NCBI GenBank assembly: GCA_964345445.1
Contig: CAYFQT010000024.1
Location: 4,634-68,633 of the forward strand
Length of the DNA: 64,000 nucleotides
Direction of reading: 5' to 3'
DNA from: an uncultured Candidatus Saccharibacteria bacterium
Lineage (GTDB): Bacteria; Patescibacteriota; CPR2_A; CAYFQT01
The notes below the pieces were generated by a model. The model was given only the letters and a program-made list of their open reading frames with translations, had not been told where the DNA came from and did not search any database. The position numbers were made by a program, and so were the translations under genes. Positions 10,038 through 64,000 of this stretch are shown piece after piece; within the stretch, counting starts at the first letter, position 1, and each line of letters begins with the position of its first letter.

Positions 10038-10184
10038 AATTGTTCAAGATGTTCAAATTGAACAAGGACAAGTGAGCGGAGCGAACGATTGGACAAATGA
10101 ACGAAGTGAGTGATTGAACAAACGAAGTCCCGCTCAGCGGGACGAGCGATAGAACAACTCGAACATTTTTGGAGAAGACCCAAA
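10020..10184 (+). repeat. Family-4 element (ttgttcaagatgttcaaattgaacaa ... ttgaacaaacgaag ... agaacaactcgaacattttt) with central gtcccgctcagcgggac hairpin
   Basis: Same words as 1135-1243. Overlaps the adk 3' end. cccgctcagcggg is a perfect palindrome. Confidence 0.7.
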
Positions 10185-10952
10185 ATGATTATTATAAAAA
10201 AACCTGAAGAAATCGAAAAAATGCGCCAAGGGGGGAAAATTTTAACAGATATCTTAAGGTATATAAAAAAAGAGATTAAACCAGGAATAACTACAAAAAA
10301 ATTAGATAGTTTGGCAGAAAATTTGATATATAAAAATAATGCCACTCCTTCTTTTAAAAATTTTTCATCTAACTCTTATCAGGAAATAAAATACCCAGCT
10401 GCTTTATGTACTTCAGTCAATGATGAGGTAGTACATGGGATTCCTTCGAGTCGGAAATTAAAAGAAGGGGATATAATAGGTTTAGATTTAGGAATTTGTT
10501 TTAAAAGTTTTTATACAGATGCAGCTATTACTGCCCCAGTGGGAAAGGTTGGAAAAGAAGTTAAAAGATTAATTGATGTTACAAAAAAAGCTTTAAAGCA
10601 AAGCGTTAAAGAGGTAAAACCAAAAAATAGAATTGGAGATGTTTCTTCGGTTATTCAAAAAACAATAGAAGCTGCTGGTTTTTCACCAGTTAGAGATTGT
10701 GTAGGACACGGAGTGGGAAAATTTGTTCATGAGGAGCCTTCGATTCCTAATTATGGTGAGCCCGGGGTAGGCAAGTTATTAAAGACAGGAATGACTTTAG
10801 CTATTGAACCCATAGCTGATTTAAGAGAATATAAAGTAAAAGTTTGCCAGGACGGTTGGACAATCAGAACTTGTGATGGAAGCCCCTCAAGCCATTTTGA
10901 ATGGACAGTCGCTGTCACTGATGATGGATATGAGGTTTTGACACCGATTTAA
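10185..10952 (+). CDS. map: Methionine aminopeptidase type I
   Basis: M24 fold motifs GDIIGLDLG, VGHGVGKFVHEEP and LAIEP. ATG 10185 is in frame with the track start 10110, which lies within the repeat spacer. Confidence 0.9.
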   Translation: MIIIKKPEEIEKMRQGGKILTDILRYIKKEIKPGITTKKLDSLAENLIYKNNATPSFKNFSSNSYQEIKYPAALCTSVNDEVVHGIPSSRKLKEGDIIGLDLGICFKSFYTDAAITAPVGKVGKEVKRLIDVTKKALKQSVKEVKPKNRIGDVSSVIQKTIEAAGFSPVRDCVGHGVGKFVHEEPSIPNYGEPGVGKLLKTGMTLAIEPIADLREYKVKVCQDGWTIRTCDGSPSSHFEWTVAVTDDGYEVLTPI

Positions 10953-18004: not shown

Positions 18005-18883
18005 ATGCTTGAAGAATTTTTACAAGATTTACAACAATTATTTTCTAATATAAGCAATCCTTTCTCTTATAGTTTTGGTTTAAGGAGTAATTATTTATTT
18101 ACTATTTTAGATATAGTAATTGTAGCTTTACTTTTTTATTGGTTGTATATTTTAATTCGAGGCACAAAAGCTATCCGTATACTCTTAGGGATAGTGGTTT
18201 TAGTTGTTGTTATGATGATAAGTAGAATTTTAGGGTTGATTACTTTAAATTGGCTATTGCGATATTTGGTTACTATGCTAATTATTGCTATTCCTATTGT
18301 TTTTCAGCCAGAGTTACGAAGGGCTTTAGAAAAAATTGGACGAACCGGTTTTTTAGGGAGTCTTCGTTCAAATGAAGATAAATTAGAATATATTGTAGAT
18401 GAGATTATAAAAGCAATTGGTGAGATGTCTAAAAATAAAATTGGAGGTTTGTTAGTTTTAAAACGAAAGACTGAATTGGGAGAATATGTTGATACAGGTA
18501 CAAAAATTGACGGCAGGTTATCTTCTGAGTTAATTTTAAACATATTTTTTCCTCATTCCCCCTTACATGATGGAGCTATAATTATTGATGGTGATAAAGT
18601 TCTGTCAGCTGGTTCTATGTTACCACTTTCTGAGGAAGGAAAATTATCTTTTAATTTTGGTACAAGACACAGAGCCGCTCTAGGACTTTCTTTAGAAACT
18701 GATGCAGTGATAATTGTTATTTCAGAAGAGAAAGGTACTGTTTCTCTAGTATCTGAGGGCAAAATTACTAAGGATATAGATATTCCAAAATTACAAAAAA
18801 TACTTTTGAAGTTATTAAAAACCGACCAGAAAAAAGTTGGCCGGTCTTTTTTAAAAAAGGAAAGAAGAAAAACTAGAAGCTAA
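18005..18883 (+). CDS. cdaA: Diadenylate cyclase CdaA (DAC domain with N-terminal TM helices)
   Basis: DAC motifs HSPLHDGAIIIDGDKVLSAG and GTRHRAALGLSLETDAVIIVISEEKGTVSL. Three N-terminal TM segments are predicted. Confidence 0.8.
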   Translation: MLEEFLQDLQQLFSNISNPFSYSFGLRSNYLFTILDIVIVALLFYWLYILIRGTKAIRILLGIVVLVVVMMISRILGLITLNWLLRYLVTMLIIAIPIVFQPELRRALEKIGRTGFLGSLRSNEDKLEYIVDEIIKAIGEMSKNKIGGLLVLKRKTELGEYVDTGTKIDGRLSSELILNIFFPHSPLHDGAIIIDGDKVLSAGSMLPLSEEGKLSFNFGTRHRAALGLSLETDAVIIVISEEKGTVSLVSEGKITKDIDIPKLQKILLKLLKTDQKKVGRSFLKKERRKTRS

Positions 18884-18956
18884 TAATAACTAATAATTTT
18901 TATCCACCCCTGCCTGTCGGCAGACAGGCTTGGTGGAAATAACTAATAACCATACT

Positions 18957-20120
18957 ATGAGATTTTTTACAAAAAATATAGGTGTTAAAATTTTGGCTTT
19001 AGTTTTTGCTACCTCCCTGTGGGTATATGTAACCTCTGGAGAGGCTAAAACAGCTTCCTTCCCAGGTAGTATTCCTATCGAGGTAAGAAATACACCCAAA
19101 GATACTGCTTTAGTTGAGGAAATAGAAGATTTAAATTTAAAAATTAAAGCCCCTTATACTAGTTGGCAAAATCTTTCTGTTGATGATTTTACAGCTTATA
19201 TAGATTTAGAAGATTTAGAACAAGGAGCTTACAAAATAGATGTAGAGGTACAAGTTTCTGATCCACAAGTCCAAATTATAGAGAAAAACCCTTCACGAGT
19301 TTCTGTTCGTTTAGATCCTGTTGAAACAAAAAAAGTACCTGTTTCTGTAAAAATAGAAGGGGAGGCAGGTGAAGGTTTTGCTCCGGGAGAACCTAAAGTA
19401 GATACTGAAGAAGTAGAAATTAAAGGAGCAAAAACCAAGGTTGAAGAAGTTTCTTATGCCACTGCACCTGTTAAATTAGAGGGGGAAATGGCTAAAATTG
19501 AGAAATCAGTAAGGCTTACAGCTTTTGATTCCAGAGGCAAAGAGATAAAAAATATTATTTTTACTCCTGGTGTTGTTAAAGTTGCTATAAACATTGAACC
19601 AGCGGCTAATGTAAAAAATGTAGGTATAAAAGTAAATATAGTTGGTCAACCCAAAGCAGGTTACTGGGTTTCTAAAGTGACTACACAACCTGCCACAGTT
19701 AATATAAAAGGTGACCAAGAAGTAATGGAAAAAATTGAGTATTTAGAAACAGCCAATATAGATGTGAGTAATTTATCTTCAGGAATAAACAAAACAGCTG
19801 TTTTGTCTTTGCCAGAGGGGATAAGTTTAGTAGATGCTGATTTTAATATTTCCGTGAGAATTTATATATCCCAGGATTTAACTACTCGTACTATCCCAGC
19901 TAGTTTTACATTTTCTGGCGCTGGGTCTACTTCTAATATTGTTAATGTTACAGTCAGCGGTCCTTCATCTTCTGTAGATTCTTTAACTTCAGACAATATA
20001 GTGATTAATATAGGAGATAATATGGGAAATATTTCCATAACAAAAGATATGATTTCAGTTCCTTCTGATATAGAAATTATTGACTTTTCTCCCAAAGTGA
20101 TAAATGTGATTGTGGAATAA
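18957..20120 (+). CDS. cdaR: YbbR-like domain protein CdaR (regulator of CdaA)
   Basis: Signal-anchor then repeated YbbR-like beta modules, immediately downstream of cdaA in the conserved cdaA-cdaR arrangement. ATG 18957 is in frame with the track's TTG 18930. Confidence 0.7.
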   Translation: MRFFTKNIGVKILALVFATSLWVYVTSGEAKTASFPGSIPIEVRNTPKDTALVEEIEDLNLKIKAPYTSWQNLSVDDFTAYIDLEDLEQGAYKIDVEVQVSDPQVQIIEKNPSRVSVRLDPVETKKVPVSVKIEGEAGEGFAPGEPKVDTEEVEIKGAKTKVEEVSYATAPVKLEGEMAKIEKSVRLTAFDSRGKEIKNIIFTPGVVKVAINIEPAANVKNVGIKVNIVGQPKAGYWVSKVTTQPATVNIKGDQEVMEKIEYLETANIDVSNLSSGINKTAVLSLPEGISLVDADFNISVRIYISQDLTTRTIPASFTFSGAGSTSNIVNVTVSGPSSSVDSLTSDNIVINIGDNMGNISITKDMISVPSDIEIIDFSPKVINVIVE

Positions 20121-56870: not shown

Positions 56871-57425
56871 ATGAAACTTACTCTTACTGAAAAATTATTA
56901 ATTGTTCTAAATGAAATTTTTGAAGATATAGATGATGTAGTCACCACGCATACCTGGAATGATTATTTTAAAAAAATATACAATAAGACACCTGTTAGAG
57001 AAAGAGTAAGATCAACAATTCAATATTTGGAAAAAAAGAAATATGTTGAGGTATATAAGGGAGAAAAAGGAAAATTATATAAGATTACTCCATATGGTAG
57101 AAATAAAATTCGTAGTTATATATTTTCTGAAGAAAACTGGGACAAAAAATGGAGGATTGTTATATTTGATATTCCGGAAGACAAGAAGAATGATAGGGAT
57201 TATTTTAGATATAAATTAAAAGAATTAGGATTTAAAAAATTACAAAAGAGCGTCTGGGTTTGTCCTTTTGATATAATAGATGAAACAAAAGAATTAGTAA
57301 ATAAACTTAGAGTAAAATCATATGTAAAATGTATATTGGCAGACTATATTGATGATCAAGAAAAATTTCTATCTAAATTTATAGTTGATAATAAATCATT
57401 AACAGTAAAGAATAAAAAATATTAA
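56871..57425 (+). CDS. PaaX-like regulator: N-terminal winged-helix plus C-terminal Cas2/VapD-fold (PaaX_C-like) domain
   Basis: N-terminal wHTH-like segment STIQYLEKKKYVEVYKGEKGKLYKITPYG. C-terminal WRIVIFDIPEDKKNDRDYFRYKLKELGFKKLQKSVWVCP matches the Cas2/PaaX_C beta-alpha-beta pattern. The gene is bracketed by identical 40-bp direct repeats. Confidence 0.6.
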   Translation: MKLTLTEKLLIVLNEIFEDIDDVVTTHTWNDYFKKIYNKTPVRERVRSTIQYLEKKKYVEVYKGEKGKLYKITPYGRNKIRSYIFSEENWDKKWRIVIFDIPEDKKNDRDYFRYKLKELGFKKLQKSVWVCPFDIIDETKELVNKLRVKSYVKCILADYIDDQEKFLSKFIVDNKSLTVKNKKY

Positions 57426-57463
57426 AAATTTTAAGAATATTATTAATATATAAAATATATAAA

Positions 57464-57503
57464 ATATATAAATATACCGCGACCGCGATAGAAATATATA
57501 TTT
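57464..57503 (+). repeat. 40-bp direct repeat, copy B
   Basis: Identical to copy A. Lies 39 bp downstream of the PaaX-like gene stop. Confidence 0.85.
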
Positions 57504-57696
57504 GAAATTTTTGAATTTACAACCAATTTTAGTTTTTTAAATTTATAAAGAATTTTTCTAAGATTTTTATCTGTTTGATAAAAATCTTTTTTTATATTTG
57601 AATAGGTTTTTTAAATTATATAACTTTTATATTAATTTTGGATAAGGGCTTGAAAACCCTTATAAATAGGCAAAAAAAAGTTTTTTAAAAAAACTC

Positions 57697-57725
57697 TTGA
57701 CAAGTGAAGAATAATTTGTTACAAT
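57697..57725 (+). promoter_or_regulatory. Consensus sigma70-type promoter (TTGACA-17-TACAAT) with extended AACTCTTGACA box
   Basis: aaaactcTTGACAagtgaagaataatttgtTACAATact, preceded by an A/T tract. Confidence 0.55.
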
Positions 57726-57731
57726 ACTATC

Positions 57732-58139
57732 TTCTAAATTAAAAATAAAATAATACAAAAACCCTTCTATGTTTCTGCGGACAAGAAAGCTTTGGAGGAC
57801 AGTCCCTAAACCAAAAATCAATTCAGGGCAAGCAGAAACAAAAAACAAAAACCAACAAAATACAGTTTTGAGTTTGAGTATTTAGTCTGAGTTTATTTAT
57901 ACTCATAGTTCCAACTCTAAGCTCAAAACTACACCGTTGGTTTTTTAATTTGCACATTAAATTTTTTATCTTGTTTTTATCTTATCTCGATCTTTATCGA
58001 GATGACGTGGGGGCGTTGAACTATGATCTGTAATTGGTCACTTGGATTATAGGGAGCCAGTAGTGAAACCGGCCACAAATTAGCTTTTAGCACTTAGCAC
58101 ATAGTGCTTAGCTAAAAGATATAAAGGCCGGTTTTTTTA
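57732..58139 (+). ncRNA. Candidate small/medium non-coding RNA transcribed from the 57697 promoter and ending at the 58068-58139 terminator
   Basis: No ORF. 5' stem gtttctgc...gcagaaac encloses ggac...gtcc. Hairpin atctcgatctttatcgagat. Terminal hairpin aaaccggcc...agcttttagcacttagcac atag tgcttagctaaaag...ggccggttttttt. Confidence 0.3.
58068..58139 (+). terminator. Long compound terminator hairpin
   Basis: aaccggcc ... ggccggtt plus a U7 run, with the inner perfect stem agcttttagcacttagcac / gtgcttagctaaaag. Confidence 0.5.
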
Positions 58140-58378
58140 TAACACGGATTAACGCGGATTGGTTACGGATAGACACGGATATTATATAGTGTGTAGAATT
58201 CTGCGTAGGTAATTTAGTCTGTCTACCGTCCTTGGCAGACTACAAATTTACCTATGCAGATTCCTATTCATTATATTAGTTCTTTGATATTTTAAAAATA
58301 AATATAAGGTAATCCTCGGGGGAACTTGAGGGCGAAAACTTGATTATAAAATATTGTAGTCAAATTTTCGTCCTTAAA

Positions 58379-58404
58379 GGGCCCCGCGAGGGGCCCTTTA
58401 TTTG
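58379..58404 (+). terminator. Rho-independent terminator (GC-clamp hairpin)
   Basis: gggcccc gcga ggggccc followed by tttattt. Confidence 0.55.
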
Positions 58405-58664
58405 GATTTTGTTGTTAAGGACGAAAAGGACGAAAATATCAAAAGATGAAAACTTTTTACCCTGATGCTCTCCAACTCTGGAGGAGCATTCTGGCCCAGA
58501 AGGGAAAAGTGGAAATCTTTTGTTAAGTTTTACTGTTTGGCTTCCGTATTTAATTTACGGAAATTTGATCCAGAGTCGAAATAGATGTTTTTGGTTCGAT
58601 GGTACAGTCCATCGAACTGTAGATCTAGTCGAAATTTCTGATTTAAAAGGAAGGAGTGAAGAAC

Positions 58665-60035
58665 ATGTCTATAAAAGACAGATTGTCGAGTTTTTGGGGC
58701 TGGCTGAGAAGATTGCGCCGTGAGACGCGAAGCCAGCTTAAGCTCTGTTGGATTCCGTTTACAGCAGTTGTAGTAATGTTAGCAGTAATAGCTAGTACAA
58801 ATTATTATGCTATAGCGTCAGTTAGACAAACACCAGCTGAAGCAAAAGAAATTTTAAAAGACATCAAGACAGAACGAAAAACATTCAAGCAAGATATGCG
58901 TAGGGAACGAGAAGCCTTTTTTGAAGAGTTTAAGAAGGCACGAGAGGAGCAAGGAGCTAAAACTGAGGTAGTTGAAACAACTGAAGCAAAAGCAACCCAG
59001 GCAGCGGCAGTTCAGGTGACTGAGGAGTATCCATTAATGATGAGTGGAATCCCCTGTGAAATGACAGCAAAGAACATTAAGAAATTAGTGGCGGCACAAC
59101 CTGTGGCGATCCAGCAGGCTTACAATGATCGGGCACAGAGCCTGGGATATTCTGACTTTCAGAGTATTCCTAAAGGTGATATGAGTTTTGAAACCCTTCA
59201 GTATGGAGGGATGTATAAAAACTCATATTACAAAGGTGGGGTAGTGCGCTTCGTCCGGATGTATATTGCATCTGGTACCCCTGTTCTAGTAGTAGAGGGT
59301 AATGTTTTCGCCAAGACTAATTGCGGAAACATTTTGTACCCAGCACCAGCTCCAAAACCAGCCCCGAGTCGGAGAGTTGTGCACAGAGTAGAGCGGGTGG
59401 AAGTCAAGGAATATGAGACAGTCATTATTCGTATTTTTGAGAAAGAAGAATATATAGAGAAGATTGTCAAAGTTCCTTGTGAAAAGCCTGTTGTAGAACA
59501 AAAACCTTGCCAGGTTCCACCACAGTTTCCACCAACTCAGGAACAGAAGGATTTCGAGCAAGAGCAAAAAGATAAAGAGCCTACAAAGAAGCCTTGTCCT
59601 CCTAAGGAACCAAAACCAAAAGAGCCGCAAGAACCTCAAGAACCTCAGGAGCCACAAGAACCAGACCAAAAGCAAGAGCCTGATCAGAAACAAGAACCTG
59701 ATCAGAAACAAGAACCAGACCAAAAGCAAAAGCCAACAGTAACGCAGAATCAAACTGAAGTTCAGCAGGATCAGAAGCAGGATACAAAACAGGAAGAACA
59801 GCAAGTACAGGAACAAAAAGAACAGCCGACAAAACAAGAATCAACAGTAAAACAGCAAGAAGAAACAAAACAGGAGCAGCAGCAATCACCAAAGCAAGAA
59901 ACTCAGCAACAACAGACCCAGACTCAGCAAAAGCAAACTCAACAACAGAACCAGCAACAACAGAACAATCAGCAGAATCAACAGCAAAATCCAGTACAAC
60001 AAAACTCGGTACAGCAAGCACCAAACACAAGTTAA
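58665..60035 (+). CDS. Hypothetical signal-anchored secreted protein with globular central domain and long P/E/Q/K-rich low-complexity C-terminus
   Basis: TM at WIPFTAVVVMLAVIAS. Repeats PKEPQEPQEPQEPQEPDQKQEPDQKQ then a poly-Gln tail. Region GC is higher than the genome background. ATG 58665 follows RBS aaggag. Confidence 0.5.
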   Translation: MSIKDRLSSFWGWLRRLRRETRSQLKLCWIPFTAVVVMLAVIASTNYYAIASVRQTPAEAKEILKDIKTERKTFKQDMRREREAFFEEFKKAREEQGAKTEVVETTEAKATQAAAVQVTEEYPLMMSGIPCEMTAKNIKKLVAAQPVAIQQAYNDRAQSLGYSDFQSIPKGDMSFETLQYGGMYKNSYYKGGVVRFVRMYIASGTPVLVVEGNVFAKTNCGNILYPAPAPKPAPSRRVVHRVERVEVKEYETVIIRIFEKEEYIEKIVKVPCEKPVVEQKPCQVPPQFPPTQEQKDFEQEQKDKEPTKKPCPPKEPKPKEPQEPQEPQEPQEPDQKQEPDQKQEPDQKQEPDQKQKPTVTQNQTEVQQDQKQDTKQEEQQVQEQKEQPTKQESTVKQQEETKQEQQQSPKQETQQQQTQTQQKQTQQQNQQQQNNQQNQQQNPVQQNSVQQAPNTS

Positions 60036-60235
60036 TTAATTAGCTTCTAGCTTCTCTTGATTATTCCATTGGCCAGAGTGGAGAAAAATAGTTAGGAAGT
60101 GAGTTAGATGCTCAAAAAGTACGACCTTTTTAGCGCTAAGAAGGGGCGAAAAAAGTATTATTGAATAAATTTATTATTCAATCTTTTTCGCCCCTAGACT
60201 AAATCACATTTTTTGGAATTAATTACAAAATTATT

Positions 60236-60362
60236 AAAAGTGGTATAATGAAATTGTTAGACGGTTACGGGTTAGGAAGTGCGTATCGTCAAACGGTTAT
60301 GTTAGACGTTAAATTTTAAACAATACGGGTTTCGTAACCATAACCTTAACCATAAATAATTT
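60236..60362 (+). repeat. Family-6 element (cggttacgggttagg / cggttatgttagacg mirrored by cgtaacc / taacc)
   Basis: gacggttacgggttaggaagtgcgtatcgtcaaacggttatgttagacgtt...gggtttcgtaaccataaccttaaccataaataatttATGgagg. Confidence 0.65.
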
Positions 60363-60374
60363 ATGGAGGTGAAC

Positions 60375-62123
60375 ATGAATAGAAAATTTACAAAACTAAA
60401 TAAATTATCTCAGAAGGCAATTATACTTTTGTTAATTGTCAGTTTAGTTATGCCTGCTGGTTTAACTTGGGCAGGGAAAGTTGTTTATGCAGCGACCGGA
60501 ACTTCTAAAGTTACTTTGTCAGCCAATCCTCAGATAATCACAGCCGGTCAAGCATCTACCTTATCAGGACAACTTTCTCCCTATCATTCCGGGGTATATA
60601 TTTATCTATATTATTGGAATGGTTCAAATTGGGTTTTAGTTGAGAAGAAAAAAACTGATAGTTATTCTAAATTTTCATTTCAAGTAAAACCTACAAAAGA
60701 TACTTATTACACAGCCCTATGGGCTGGAGATACAGATCATAATTGGTCATATTCTGAATATATAAAAGTTAAGGTGCAGCAGGAAACCAGAGAGTCTCAA
60801 ATTACTTTATCAGCCAATCCAGATGTTGTTGCCCCAGGCGAATATTCAGTTTTATCCGGAACACTGTCTCCTTCACATAATAATATTTCTGTTTATCTAT
60901 ATTATTGGGATGGTTCTGATTGGAAATATTTAACTCAGACTAAGACTAATCTTAATTCCAAATTTTCCTTCACTGTAAAGCCTACTCAAGATACTTACTA
61001 TACAGCTTTATGGGTAGGTGATTCTGACCATAATTGGTCCTATTCTGAATATATCCAAGTTAAAATTCAACAGGAAACTTCAGAGTCTCAAATTACTTTA
61101 TCTGCTAATCCTCAAACTGTTCAACCTGGGCAACAGACAACTTTATCTGGAGAGATTTCCCCATCACATCCTAATGTACAAGTCTATTTATATTATTGGA
61201 ATGGAGAAGATTGGGTTTATATACAAAATACAAAAACTAACAGCCAATCTAAATTTTCTTTCACAGCCGAACCTCAAAATAATACTTATTATTGTGCCTT
61301 ATGGTCTGGGGATTCAAGTCACTCATGGGCTTACTCAGAATTTGTCTATGTAACTGTTGAGGAAGATGGGGGAGGAACATCTTATGTTCCTTGGTCAGGA
61401 TGGTGGTGGCCATATTTAGATACAATTAACCCTAATCTTTATGATTCAGGCGGTCCTTTGGATAAATATGATAAATATGTAGGAAATACCCGAGGATATA
61501 ATCCTTCAAGTCGCAGTTGGGAATATGGCAATCACTATACTTTAAATCCTTCAGCCACCTGGTGGGGACATTGCCATGCGCTGGCTGCTGCATCTATCTT
61601 GGAGCCTGAACCTAGAACAAATCGTAATAAAGGAGGGATTTCCTTCCAAGTTGCCGATCAAAAAGGAATGATAACAGAATTATATTATAGTCCTCAATCC
61701 TTGATGTGGGGAGATAGATATGGTGATGGAAGAGGTTCAGAAGATTTTTCTGATATTGCTCCAGGTGCTTTCCATAGCCTTTTGTTAAATTATATTAAAA
61801 GCCAGAAGAAGTCCTTGGTTTTCGATACCAATGCTGGATATCAAGTATGGAATTTCCCTGCTTATAAATATAGTATGACATCTCAAGAAGAAGGTGGTCG
61901 CACATATTATACAACAACTGTTTGGTTTGCAAATTACACAAGCCCTAATTCTGTAGGAACTAGTTCATTTACCAAGACATACACTTATTGGATTTCCGGC
62001 AATCAAAGCGGCTGGACAGGGTCAAGTATAAATGATCATCCAGATTTTGTATGGTTGCCTACTGGTAGATATCAGCAAGGGAATCCAATAAATTACAATA
62101 TTGTTAAAGAAATATTAAATTAA
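60375..62123 (+). CDS. Secreted protein: signal peptide, three tandem ~97-aa Ig-like repeats, C-terminal transglutaminase/papain-like Cys-core domain
   Basis: Signal peptide KAIILLLIVSLVMPAGLTWA. Three repeats of ...TLSANP...TLSG.LSP.H..V.IYLYYWNG.DW...TKT...SKFSF...P..DTYY.ALW.GDS.H.W.YSE... The C-terminal domain contains WWGHCHALAAAS, a G-x-C-x-x-L-A transglutaminase-like catalytic Cys context. Confidence 0.55.
   Translation: MNRKFTKLNKLSQKAIILLLIVSLVMPAGLTWAGKVVYAATGTSKVTLSANPQIITAGQASTLSGQLSPYHSGVYIYLYYWNGSNWVLVEKKKTDSYSKFSFQVKPTKDTYYTALWAGDTDHNWSYSEYIKVKVQQETRESQITLSANPDVVAPGEYSVLSGTLSPSHNNISVYLYYWDGSDWKYLTQTKTNLNSKFSFTVKPTQDTYYTALWVGDSDHNWSYSEYIQVKIQQETSESQITLSANPQTVQPGQQTTLSGEISPSHPNVQVYLYYWNGEDWVYIQNTKTNSQSKFSFTAEPQNNTYYCALWSGDSSHSWAYSEFVYVTVEEDGGGTSYVPWSGWWWPYLDTINPNLYDSGGPLDKYDKYVGNTRGYNPSSRSWEYGNHYTLNPSATWWGHCHALAAASILEPEPRTNRNKGGISFQVADQKGMITELYYSPQSLMWGDRYGDGRGSEDFSDIAPGAFHSLLLNYIKSQKKSLVFDTNAGYQVWNFPAYKYSMTSQEEGGRTYYTTTVWFANYTSPNSVGTSSFTKTYTYWISGNQSGWTGSSINDHPDFVWLPTGRYQQGNPINYNIVKEILN
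60507..61375 (+). repeat. Three tandem ~291-bp repeats inside the CDS, encoding Ig-like modules
   Basis: DNA and protein self-similarity: ...actttatcagccaatcc... x3 and ...tattattgg(a/g)atgg... x3. Confidence 0.75.
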
Positions 62124-62139
62124 AAGGACGGTACAAAAT

Positions 62140-62817
62140 ATGAAGAGGAAATTAACAATTGCGATAGTTATTATAATTTGGATAGCAGTGGGTTTTGTTG
62201 GGTTGAAAATAAAATGGTCAAAGAATGAAGAGAAGGAACCCACAAAGAATGACTCTCAGGTAGAAAAACAAGAGCGACAGGAAGGATCAGAAAATCTTTT
62301 GGGCTGGGAAAAAGGAGACTGGTGGGAAGTTCAAACAAGTCAGTATTCTGCTTGGATAGCTCAGCCGGAATGGATGCCTGGCCCCAAATTGAAATTTGAA
62401 GTAGAAAATATAAAAGAAGATGAAGGACAAAAAAAGGCAGAAATTCTTGTAACTTATTCGGATAAAGAAAATCAGCCAGAATTGACACGCGAAGATTTTA
62501 CAAAAGTAATTTATAATTTAGAAAATTTTCAGATTTTAGAAATCCAAGCCCGAGTTTACGGAGAAGATTCAAATTTTGAAAATTCTAATATGCAGTTTGC
62601 TCCTTATTATTCTTTGTGCCGACTGCCTGAAAAACCTCACCAAGAAGGAAATGATACTATATTTAAACTTACAGAGGGAAAATTAAAAGATCAATTGCTA
62701 ACTGGCAGAAAAATTTCTATAGATAGCAGTTTTCAGATTTGGCATGAGAATATTCCTTGGTGGGCATATTATGAGGATGAGAATACAAAAGGAGAAATTA
62801 TAAATTGGCAATTATAA
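62140..62817 (+). CDS. Hypothetical signal-anchored protein
   Basis: N-terminal TM LTIAIVIIIWIAVGFVGL. Acidic, Trp-rich ectodomain with no known motif. Confidence 0.45.
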   Translation: MKRKLTIAIVIIIWIAVGFVGLKIKWSKNEEKEPTKNDSQVEKQERQEGSENLLGWEKGDWWEVQTSQYSAWIAQPEWMPGPKLKFEVENIKEDEGQKKAEILVTYSDKENQPELTREDFTKVIYNLENFQILEIQARVYGEDSNFENSNMQFAPYYSLCRLPEKPHQEGNDTIFKLTEGKLKDQLLTGRKISIDSSFQIWHENIPWWAYYEDENTKGEIINWQL

Positions 62818-63005
62818 AAATATCAGTTTAATAATAAATAAAGGTCGATATTAAAAAAGAAAATAATTAATAATTTAAAAACAGTTTACCCCTGAAAATA
62901 CTTTAGTATTTTCAGAGAAAAGGAGGAAGGAACTGAAGATGCGAGTTCCGGTAAATACCGGAACGAAGGTCGGAAGTGCCTTCCGACGAGACAAGGAGGT
63001 GAATT

Positions 63006-63743
63006 ATGAAAAGATTAATTTCTATTTTAAAAACAGCAAAGATTGATGAAGCCACAAAAGAGAGATTTAAATTGGCAGAGGCAAAATTTGCTTATCGTTT
63101 AGGCAAAAGCAGGAAAATAGTTGCTGTATTAGTTGTTATTTTGTTTGTGGCTCAAATAGGAGTTGGCATTAGTCAGAGTATGGCCTCAGGCGAGGAACCT
63201 AATAAGACTCAAAAGGTAGAAGAGAAAAAACCTACTCAGCCAGAGCAACCTGACAAAAAAGGTGAACCTACTCAACCAGAAAAACCGCAAGAGCCTGAAA
63301 AACCTCAGGAACCAGAAAAACCGCAAGAGCCTGAAAAACCTCAGGAACCTGAAAAACCGCAAGAGCCTGAAAAACCTCAGGAACCAGAAAAATTAAAACC
63401 AGAATTACCCAAAATAGAAGAACCAATAATTGAAAAGAAACCTCAATTGCCTAAGATAGAAAAACCAGAAGAACCCAAGATTCCTCAGCCACCTGTACCA
63501 TCTCAAGATCAGCAGCAACAAATTCAGCAAGAACCAGAGAAACCTCAAGAACCACAGGAGCCACAAAAGCCTCAGGTTCCTTCAGAGCCAGAACCACAGG
63601 TTTTAGGTACTAAGACTCTGCCCCGAGTAGGAGCAGGTTTAAACATCTTATTAGGAATTTTTCTGGTATTAGCTAGTGGATATCTTTATTTTCGAGAGAA
63701 AATTTTATTTAAGTTAGCTTTAAAGAAGGTAAAAGTTAATTAA
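63006..63743 (+). CDS. Proline-rich surface protein with (P)EKPQEP tandem repeats and C-terminal LPxxG-type sorting-signal-like anchor
   Basis: N-terminal TM. At least 6 copies of EKPQEP encoded by an 18/36-bp DNA repeat. The C-terminus is LPRVGAG + hydrophobic stretch LNILLGIFLVLASGYLYF + basic REK, resembling a sortase substrate cell-wall sorting signal. Confidence 0.55.
   Translation: MKRLISILKTAKIDEATKERFKLAEAKFAYRLGKSRKIVAVLVVILFVAQIGVGISQSMASGEEPNKTQKVEEKKPTQPEQPDKKGEPTQPEKPQEPEKPQEPEKPQEPEKPQEPEKPQEPEKPQEPEKLKPELPKIEEPIIEKKPQLPKIEKPEEPKIPQPPVPSQDQQQQIQQEPEKPQEPQEPQKPQVPSEPEPQVLGTKTLPRVGAGLNILLGIFLVLASGYLYFREKILFKLALKKVKVN
63276..63392 (+). repeat. Tandem 36-bp (2 x 18 bp) repeat encoding (EKPQEP)n
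   Basis: ccagaaaaaccgcaagagcctgaaaaacctcaggaa repeated about 3.3 times with perfect identity. Confidence 0.8.
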
Positions 63744-63775
63744 AAAGTGGCGCCTGTCGTGTTTTAAATATATAA

Positions 63776-63803
63776 AAGAGACCCCCAAGGGTCTCTTTTG
63801 TGA
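63776..63803 (+). terminator. Rho-independent terminator after the surface-protein gene
   Basis: aaagagaccc ccaa gggtctcttt tg. Confidence 0.6.
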
Positions 63804-64000
63804 TATAATATTAACAAATATCAAAATTCAAAGTGTAAAGTGCAAAATGAAAATGTAAAATTTAAAATATTTTTTATTTGTAATTTTATTTTTTGATTTT
63901 TAATATTTGATATTATTGATAGGAGGATTGATATCATGAAAGAATTACTTACAGAATTTAAAGAATTAAACAAGAAAATTGAACATACAAAGGGGTGTCT

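Follow-up and report, generated by a model that had tools for sequence, protein, structure and literature searches.

The last part of a 64,000-nucleotide (nt) stretch of contig CAYFQT010000024.1, from an uncultured Candidatus Saccharibacteria bacterium (assembly GCA_964345445.1), carries a cluster of four genes preceded by a riboswitch for cyclic dimeric guanosine monophosphate (c-di-GMP). This whole 64-kb stretch of the source contig was examined and is called the window here. Gene 2 encodes a transglutaminase-family enzyme of the GP42 type on a stalk of immunoglobulin (Ig)-like domains, gene 3 a protein that accompanies such enzymes in distant lineages, and genes 1 and 4 membrane- or surface-anchored proteins with long glutamine- and lysine-rich segments, which are candidate substrates. 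An earlier note, made from the letters of the DNA alone, had described four secreted or surface proteins here, and this description holds: the four open reading frames (ORFs) lie on the + strand between 58665 and 63743, and each product has an N-terminal hydrophobic segment for export or anchoring. A ribosome-binding site (RBS) of sequence AGGAG, 9 nt upstream, favours ATG 58665 as the start of gene 1, and GGAGG, likewise upstream, favours ATG 60375 as that of gene 2; the longer starts given by the ORF lister for these two genes are judged less likely on the same grounds. The closest relative, a syntenic locus of 21.7 kb (L001; contig SDBS01000201.1 of GCA_004196295.1), was used for comparison. 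Its gene order is identical, running from SecA through the leader and genes 1, 2, 3 and 4 to a release-factor gene, with protein identities of 85% for SecA and 61%, 76%, 67% and 68% for genes 1 to 4, respectively. Partial copies of the cluster, in the same order, occur on short metagenomic contigs (L002, L006, L007, L088 and L089).

Table 1. Features of the four-gene cluster and its leader (window coordinates; L001, locus of the closest relative).
Feature	Position	Strand	Basis or remarks
Sigma-70-type promoter	57697..57725	+	TTGACA-17-TACAAT, extended -10 TG, 11/12 matches; kept in the L001 alignment
Terminator-like hairpin T1 with U-run, between promoter and aptamer	57847..57949	+	z = -5.2; arms CCAACAA...UUGUUGGUUUUUU kept in L001
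c-di-GMP-II riboswitch aptamer (Rfam RF01786)	58000..58083	+	69.9 bits against a gathering threshold of 53.5
Expression platform, intrinsic terminator T2	58065..58138	+	Folds of window and L001, z = -3.5 to -4.1
Long conserved hairpin	58184..58276	+	z = -7.4 in the window, -6.1 in L001
Second switch-like element	58299..58437	+	Competing antiterminator/terminator pairings, z = -6.95
Conserved 3' leader hairpins, then AGGAG RBS	58440..58655	+	Compensatory changes relative to L001
Gene 1, 456 aa: N-in signal-anchor (about residues 23-53), globular core, disordered tail	58665..60035	+	Orthologues in L001 and L006
GC-clamped conserved hairpin without U-tract, gene 1-gene 2 spacer	60142..60195	+	Promoter-like site at 60222-60249
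Gene 2, 582 aa: Sec signal peptide, three Ig-like repeats, GP42-type transglutaminase domain	60375..62123	+	Pfam, PDB, AlphaFold2, alignment
Gene 3, 225 aa: N-terminal membrane anchor and all-beta domain	62140..62817	+	Unnamed family directly downstream of PF16683 genes in distant lineages
Gene 4, 245 aa: long conserved N-terminal leader with hydrophobic helix, Pro/Glu/Gln/Lys stalk, C-terminal module	63006..63743	+	
Canonical intrinsic terminator closing the cluster	63772..63801	+	z = -4.4

The C-terminal ~250 residues of gene 2 (about 61380-62120) match the Pfam family PF16683 (TGase_elicitor) with 87.1 bits against a cut-off of 25 (E = 1.3e-24), and the domain is related to Phytophthora GP42 (PDB 3TW5), the only solved member of this family, at a phmmer E-value of 4.6e-13. 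The context of a catalytic cysteine had already been recognized in this domain, and the family match confirms it: the cysteine, encoded by 61572-61574 within WWGHCHALAAAS (61560-61595), is invariant in an alignment of 28 sequences. The key residues, in the 582-aa numbering, are Cys400-His401 (61572-61577), Asp428 and Asn493. The Cys-His pair is kept in the window protein and its closest relatives, and a distant subfamily reads GHCNG. GHCHAL of gene 2 aligns with GISHAW of the 3TW5 chain, which places the cysteine opposite a serine; presumably, the crystallised protein was a Cys-to-Ser mutant. The aspartate (in ADQKG, at the N-terminus of a helix) and the asparagine (in VWNFP) are conserved and aligned to the Asp and Asn of GP42. 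In the AlphaFold2 (AF2) model the cysteine lies at the N-terminus of a helix that spans residues 403-413 in a 586-aa numbering. In active sites of the PF16683 type, the histidine directly follows the cysteine (the 'CH' motif), and its interaction partner is either an Asp from a neighbouring helix or an Asn of strand beta2; it is this family-specific adjacent motif, and not the canonical Cys...His...Asp arrangement expected at first, that gene 2 displays (PMC10318531). In oomycetes, the members of the family are membrane-bound transglutaminases of the cell wall, and both the integrity of the wall and the function of the appressorium depend on them (bioRxiv 10.1101/2021.11.23.469665).

The enzyme domain is carried on a threefold repeat. 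Three units of 97 residues at 60498-61370 correspond to a 291-nt tandem repeat (Tandem Repeats Finder score 671, 2.4 copies). This supports the repeat of ~291 bp given in the earlier note, but the description of the units as near-identical does not stand, as identity between them is no higher than 53-63% in protein and 62-68% in DNA. A unit is closer to the one in the same position of the orthologue than to the other units of its own protein (e.g. R2-R2 75%, R3-R3 69%), so the triplication is old. The AF2 model of gene 2, with a mean predicted local distance difference test (pLDDT) score of 86, begins with a helix that corresponds to the signal peptide and continues with three domains of beta-sandwich type, while the catalytic domain is alpha/beta. 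Pfam gave only sub-threshold matches to Big_3_5 and Big_7 for the repeats. In the model they are three all-beta units with a pLDDT of about 90, and a Foldseek search with the whole model found its best matches among adhesin extender repeats (6XI3, E = 1.8e-12) and macroglobulin domains. The beta-rich repeats noted before can thus be described as Ig-like beta-sandwiches.

Gene 3 follows the enzyme gene directly. Its product has no match in Pfam or NCBIfam and nothing meaningful in PDB, and the AF2 model (pLDDT 51) is too poor for fold searching. A homologue nonetheless lies directly after a PF16683 gene in an unrelated high-GC lineage (L004/L005; BLASTP E = 1e-9), and another is found in a second high-GC lineage (L003; E = 1e-5), between two transglutaminase paralogues. 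Profile-profile comparison of gene 3 with these distant partners gave a probability of 94.6% and E = 6.6e-8 over 155 columns (hhalign). All these proteins have a membrane anchor at the N-terminus, the motif GW.xGDWW and, as a C-terminal motif, W...PWW.Y. For a fourth partner of this type, in L098, the evidence is no more than suggestive, because the candidate, which is the best non-seed match among 7,499 ORFs, reaches only E = 0.08. Since gene 3 homologues follow PF16683 genes in unrelated lineages, the transglutaminase and a partner of the gene 3 type form the conserved core module.

The distant loci differ in their surroundings. In L003 (6145-11707), the two PF16683 transglutaminases that flank the gene 3-like gene are fused to discoidin domains, and the exopolysaccharide cluster that surrounds them also encodes PqqD, a radical SAM protein, Wzy_C and glycosyltransferases. 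On another contig, unrelated and from a metagenome (L100, 3281-6570), a PF16683 transglutaminase without a sorting signal of its own divergently adjoins a sortase (PF04203) and lies next to an HD_5 (HD-GYP-type) protein. Fragments of the 3' domain of a group II intron lie near the transglutaminase locus of a high-GC organism (L004 957-1034; L005 1-55).

Genes 1 and 4 encode proteins of strongly biased composition. In gene 1, a conserved globular core (residues 120-228; 59022-59348), which has no match in Pfam, NCBIfam or PDB, is followed from residue ~281 (59505 onward) by a tail of 175 residues with 36% Gln, 12% Lys, 13.5% Glu and 12% Pro. A 'VirB10-like' label given by JGI to a relative of gene 1 was rejected, being without Pfam support. 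Gene 4 contains the (EKPQEP)n array reported earlier, which is found at 63274-63392 as 6.6 copies of period 18, with a period of 36 at 97% match. Its stalk, which makes up nearly the whole protein, consists of 26% Pro, 22% Glu, 17% Gln and 16% Lys, compared with 3% Gln and 4% Pro in background proteins. The Gln/Lys-rich bias of both genes is maintained in their orthologues while the sequences diverge. Glutamine and lysine are the pair of residues joined by transglutaminases, and short-repeat proteins rich in Gln, Lys, Pro and Glu, such as involucrin and the SPRR proteins, are classic substrates in envelopes built by these enzymes. Because their tails are rich in Gln and Lys in the manner of involucrin and SPRR, genes 1 and 4 are proposed, by analogy, as candidate substrates of the gene 2 enzyme.

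Upstream of gene 1, an Rfam scan of the whole window gave a single match above threshold, a class II c-di-GMP riboswitch that had escaped the first reading of this DNA. The match is full-length (model positions 1-84 of 84, E = 1.2e-13). The 5' arm of terminator T2, GAAACCGGCC (58065-58074), is the conserved 3' strand of the aptamer, which forms P1 and the pseudoknot; the 3' arm, GGCCGGUUUU (58126-58135), is followed by a run of seven U, and the same geometry is present in L001. Because the aptamer and T2 share GAAACCGGCC, ligand binding would prevent termination, and two mutually exclusive structures of this kind most likely constitute a ligand-ON switch in vivo. In Clostridioides difficile, riboswitches of this class act as transcriptional ON switches located upstream of the sortase-substrate adhesins CD2831 and CD3246 and of type IV pilus genes (PMC11477304). 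A group I ribozyme coupled to the riboswitch, as in Cdi2_1 of C. difficile, was considered and rejected: no Rfam match with E <= 10 was found in 57300-58800, and gene 1 has a normal RBS and ATG. In the library searched, no paper was found that ties c-di-GMP signalling to Patescibacteria or the candidate phyla radiation (CPR). The presence of a c-di-GMP-II riboswitch upstream lends support to the idea, put forward in the earlier note as speculation, that the cluster is an attachment module.

Further RNA structure lies on both sides of the riboswitch. The conserved promoter is followed by ~200 nt of variable sequence and by the T1 hairpin (57697-57949), which may terminate a small RNA or act as a first attenuator before the riboswitch is reached. 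The leader as a whole aligns to L001 over ~1 kb with 80% column identity, in places exceeding the conservation of coding DNA, and several of its hairpins show compensatory substitutions relative to L001. Between T2 and the start of gene 1, it comprises a conserved, hairpin-rich stretch of ~520 nt (58140-58660). The second switch-like element, within this stretch, combines a stem T3 (58375-58400), perfectly complementary 13-nt arms (58365-58377 and 58415-58427) and a tandem AAGGACGAA. No Rfam family matches the 58140-58660 stretch at E <= 10, and a metagenome scan with a 19-base conserved leader pattern found only the L001 contig and chance high-GC matches. The stretch may act as another RNA switch, or as a leader to which a protein binds. 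An invertible DNA switch was rejected, as suitable flanking inverted repeats were not found, and so was a conserved small ORF, as the reading frames differ between the window and L001. Just past T2, four ACGGAT motifs with a spacing of 10-11 nt (58143-58186) overlap a promoter-like site (58170-58199) and are largely deleted in L001.

Gene 4 ends in a tripartite signal composed of the pentapeptide LPRVG (63618-63632, in LPRVGAG), a hydrophobic helix and a basic REK, with YLYFREK at 63681-63701 and a tail behind it. The second hydrophobic segment of the protein covers residues 204-230, with the helix at 210-228, and the C-terminal tail is near-identical in three orthologues. When the last 51 residues were compared with 1.84 billion representative proteins, three matches besides the query itself were found, all at extreme C-termini: a 583-aa protein with SdrD_B and SpaA domains and a 619-aa protein with DUF11 and SpaA/SdrD_B domains (P0035 and P0036), and a 70-aa fragment (P0037) with LATTG at the position of LPRVG. 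The shared module can be written L-[PA]-x-x-G...N...G-x-F...Y-L-Y-[FL]-R-[EQ]-[KR]. The two large proteins also carry the unusually long N-terminal leader of gene 4, at 34-35% identity. Because the same module ends adhesins with unrelated SdrD_B, SpaA and DUF11 cargo, the tail of gene 4 behaves as a modular sorting or anchoring signal. An anchor of LPxxG type had been proposed for gene 4, and its LPRVG-helix-REK signal is indeed shared with adhesin C-termini; simple membership of the LPXTG class is disfavoured, as Val takes the place of the canonical Thr at position 4 and no curated anchor or LPXTG model (NCBIfam, Pfam) matches gene 4 at E <= 10.

It is plausible that this signal is read by a sortase. 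A serious alternative, judged to fall a little short of an even chance, is that gene 4 is not a sortase substrate, and that both its termini are cytoplasmic with an extracellular Pro-rich loop, or that the module is read by a dedicated intramembrane sorting enzyme (cf. exosortase, archaeosortase, rhombosortase). Apart from the Val for Thr, proteins with unrelated cargo show no variation in the helix residues (N, G, F, YLY) or in the cytoplasmic R[EQ][KR] tail, a constancy that LPXTG signals do not usually have and that is characteristic of dedicated sorting domains; other NCBIfam sorting models likewise give no match, and a 36-residue segment ahead of the first helix of gene 4 is strongly conserved. 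No sortase was found in the window or in the L001 locus by motif, Pfam or two sortase probes, a search that covered about 6-8% of the genome. On the other hand, the cargo domains that share the signal are classic sortase-substrate domains, LATTG, which stands in the same position in one relative, is a motif like that of class E sortases, and a sortase-family protein (PF04203, E = 5e-24) is encoded in a Patescibacteria metagenome-assembled genome (MAG; L015 18205-18795). That protein reads TLQTS where TLxTC is usual, so that its nucleophile may be a Ser, or the protein may have lost its activity. The ORF at 10110-10952 of the window, which has a TxxTC motif, was considered as a sortase and identified as a methionine aminopeptidase.

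The composition of the cluster bears on its origin. Gene 1 is clearly GC-rich, as observed before, with 0.43 against 0.315 +/- 0.027 in 28 background genes, and its GC content at third codon positions (GC3) is 0.363 against 0.184 +/- 0.024 (maximum 0.222). Low-complexity composition, which had been offered as one cause, does not account for this in full, since the excess is present at synonymous sites and in both halves of the gene (globular 0.374, low-complexity 0.345). The other suggestion, horizontal acquisition, keeps part of its ground: the codon usage of gene 1 does differ from that of core genes, but a recent transfer is not supported, given the GC3 excess of gene 1 in L001 (8208-9722), which is 0.32 against 0.15-0.20. 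It is possible, if somewhat doubtful, that the cluster, or at least the leader and gene 1, is a horizontally acquired island. The GC3 of gene 1 lies 7 standard deviations over background, that of genes 2-4 (0.24-0.27) exceeds the background maximum of 0.22, and the leader has a GC content of 0.38. In addition, a SecA-anchored scan of species-representative genomes found the operon in 0/80 loci downstream of SecA, so that it is missing there from all 80 other genomes examined, and the nearest transglutaminase relatives from outside the clade belong to high-GC organisms. Against this, mobile-element genes do not flank the cluster, and L001, whose SecA is only 85% identical, has the same position, order and gene 1 excess, with genes 2-4 at background. 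Because position and excess are shared with L001, any transfer would predate the divergence of the two genomes, and the cluster would be a stable feature of the clade.

The remainder of the window is of housekeeping character, with genes for ribosomal proteins, SecY, MreB/MreC/RodA/PBP2, an LCP protein, signal peptidase I and several tRNA synthetases. The best match of SecA, at 61% identity, is in L008 (OZ246416.1), an 886-kb chromosome recorded as 'uncultured Gammaproteobacteria' whose size and company among the matches point to a mislabelled Patescibacteria genome, and the top matches are mostly Patescibacteria MAGs. The host therefore probably belongs to a thinly sampled lineage of Patescibacteria/CPR, and an episymbiont lifestyle may be supposed from these matches, which do not exceed 61% identity. 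The window also encodes CdaA, a DAC-domain synthase of cyclic dimeric adenosine monophosphate (c-di-AMP), together with a YbbR-type partner (18005-20120), and the organism is on that account predicted to make c-di-AMP. The interval that separates SecA from the operon promoter encodes, at 56871-57425, a small protein that combines a PaaX central (Cas2-like) domain with a winged helix; it is not present in L001. Downstream of the cluster, a release-factor-like gene begins at 63937 (MKELLTEFKELNKK...) and is cut by the window end at 64000. In L001, the start assigned to its orthologue is a TTG far within the gene, as might be expected with a programmed frameshift of the prfB type.

Taken together, the elements of this conserved, lineage-specific operon can be joined in a model, in part conjectural, in which c-di-GMP induces an enzyme that covalently cross-links surface tethers; this model is held with moderate confidence. 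At high c-di-GMP, the ligand would sequester ACCGGCC in the aptamer, T2 would not form, and transcription would continue into the genes, which are likely to be co-transcribed. Gene 2 would be exported via its Sec signal peptide and present the transglutaminase domain on the stalk of three Ig-like units. Its partner, the membrane-anchored product of gene 3, might serve as a tether, as a scaffold or in regulation. Gene 1 would be anchored in the membrane and gene 4 via its L[PA]xxG-type signal, probably by a sortase-like enzyme, and both would expose long disordered segments rich in Gln, Lys, Pro and Glu. Isopeptide bonds formed by the enzyme would then link the side chains of Gln and Lys in these segments and perhaps also in proteins of a partner cell. 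In this way, cells that are sessile or attached would gain a surface layer, or a tether for attachment, with covalent cross-links.

Several observations weigh against this cross-linking model, in addition to the sortase search described above. We know of no bacterial PF16683 protein that has been characterised, and the identity of gene 2 to GP42 is low and extends over part of the domain only. No GGDEF, EAL or HD-GYP protein, and hence no diguanylate cyclase or c-di-GMP phosphodiesterase, was found in the 64-kb window. The aptamer of L001 (L001 7560-7660) retains P1, P3, the loop, the 3' strand and the terminator, but scores 20.9 bits, under the Rfam threshold; its junctions are altered, a 23-nt hairpin is inserted between the P3 and P2 3' strands, and it may be either a variant or a decaying riboswitch. 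Control of the cluster may also be more complex. A second terminator lies within the ~520 nt of extra leader between riboswitch and gene 1, and gaps of 339 nt (genes 1-2, with a hairpin and a promoter-like site) and 188 nt (genes 3-4, with hairpins) interrupt the cluster. Owing to these gaps and to the extra structured leader with its terminator, the riboswitch may not be the sole control, or may not control all four genes. Finally, Pro-rich wall-spanning segments are common in Gram-positive surface proteins, so that the Gln/Lys/Pro-rich segments of genes 1 and 4 are also what ordinary wall-spanning or spacer regions look like, and no Gln/Lys-rich neighbours were found at the distant PF16683 loci, which retain the gene 3-like partner only.

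These last points would equally suit a cluster of merely neighbouring surface genes, in which the enzyme is not coupled to genes 1 and 4, the Gln/Lys/Pro regions are inert spacers and the riboswitch controls gene 1 only. Such an arrangement is considered unlikely: the four-gene order is kept in every relative recovered, the terminator after gene 4 is the only canonical one downstream of the leader, and the Gln/Lys bias survives sequence turnover. Still less probable is that the papain-like domain of gene 2 is a hydrolase (protease or isopeptidase) that processes or releases the neighbouring surface proteins like PPEP-1 in C. difficile, for although the papain-like superfamily holds both hydrolases and transferases with the same Cys chemistry (PMC10318531) and Pro-rich stalks are protease targets in C. 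difficile (PMC11477304), the biochemically characterised PF16683 members (GP42) are all transglutaminases, enrichment in both Gln and Lys specifically suits cross-linking, and a hydrolase would here be co-induced with its targets, whereas C. difficile regulates its releasing protease in the opposite way (PMC11477304).

The cross-linking model can be extended to a bolder scheme, which is regarded as improbable when taken as a whole. According to it, the host, a Patescibacteria-like bacterium of reduced genome, would read c-di-GMP through the riboswitch and respond with isopeptide cross-linking of Gln/Lys-rich tethers, building a covalent attachment matrix or a 'cornified' envelope. The signal would possibly be foreign, because no cyclase is seen in the window. 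The scheme further comprises a pairing of transglutaminase and partner genes that had not been recognised before, a new sorting system built on L[PA]xxG...YLYFR and equipped with a leader peptide of its own, and another RNA switch, of an unknown kind, in the same leader of 930 nt.

The locus is of interest for several reasons. It supplies an enzyme of the GP42 family together with its conserved partner and two adjacent candidate substrates, which makes the role of the bacterial family testable in vitro. It places a second-messenger riboswitch before a putative operon for remodelling of the surface, and does so in a lineage, probably CPR/Patescibacteria, about whose regulation and attachment very little is known. 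The L[PA]xxG...YLYFR[EQ][KR] module and the long leader peptide shared with it define a class of surface proteins that can be searched for in these organisms, and the conserved structured leader may hide another regulatory RNA.

Compared with known systems, gene 2 is closest to Phytophthora sojae GP42 and the oomycete PF16683 enzymes (3TW5), with which it shares the 'CH' motif, the Asp (ADQKG/MDLKA), the Asn (VWN) and a C-terminal HPDF-W-P motif. Like these enzymes, it appears to be extracytoplasmic and associated with the envelope. Unlike them, it belongs to a bacterium with a small genome, carries a triple Ig-like stalk instead of a transmembrane/MANSC architecture, and adjoins a dedicated partner gene and genes for Gln/Lys-rich proteins. 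The second point of reference is the class II regulon of C. difficile (CD2831, CD3246 and pilA1), in which the c-di-GMP-II aptamer, the ON architecture and surface proteins with C-terminal signals and Pro-rich stalks recur. Here, in contrast, the system lies in another phylum, an enzyme is among the genes that would be regulated, and the leader is much longer, consists of many hairpins and contains two more elements that resemble terminators; a group I ribozyme and an invertible element are both missing, and no cognate releasing protease is seen.

The C-terminal signal of gene 4 resembles the LPXTG signals read by sortases, which may occur with YSIRK-type signal peptides, in its tripartite build, its presence on unrelated adhesin cargos and its co-occurrence with an unusual N-terminal leader. 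It departs from them in LPRVG, with Val at the Thr position, in the strong conservation of helix and tail residues, and in matching no curated model. As for the architecture as a whole, the mammalian cornified envelope (involucrin/SPRR) and the Tgl spore coat of Bacillus subtilis likewise combine a cross-linking enzyme with short-repeat proteins rich in Gln, Lys, Pro and Glu, as is proposed for the window; enzyme and substrates are non-homologous to those described here, and the likeness is one of functional analogy. Each component of the cluster is of a known kind or resembles one; what is new is the way they are combined, together with the lineage of the host, the family of the partner and the variant of the signal.

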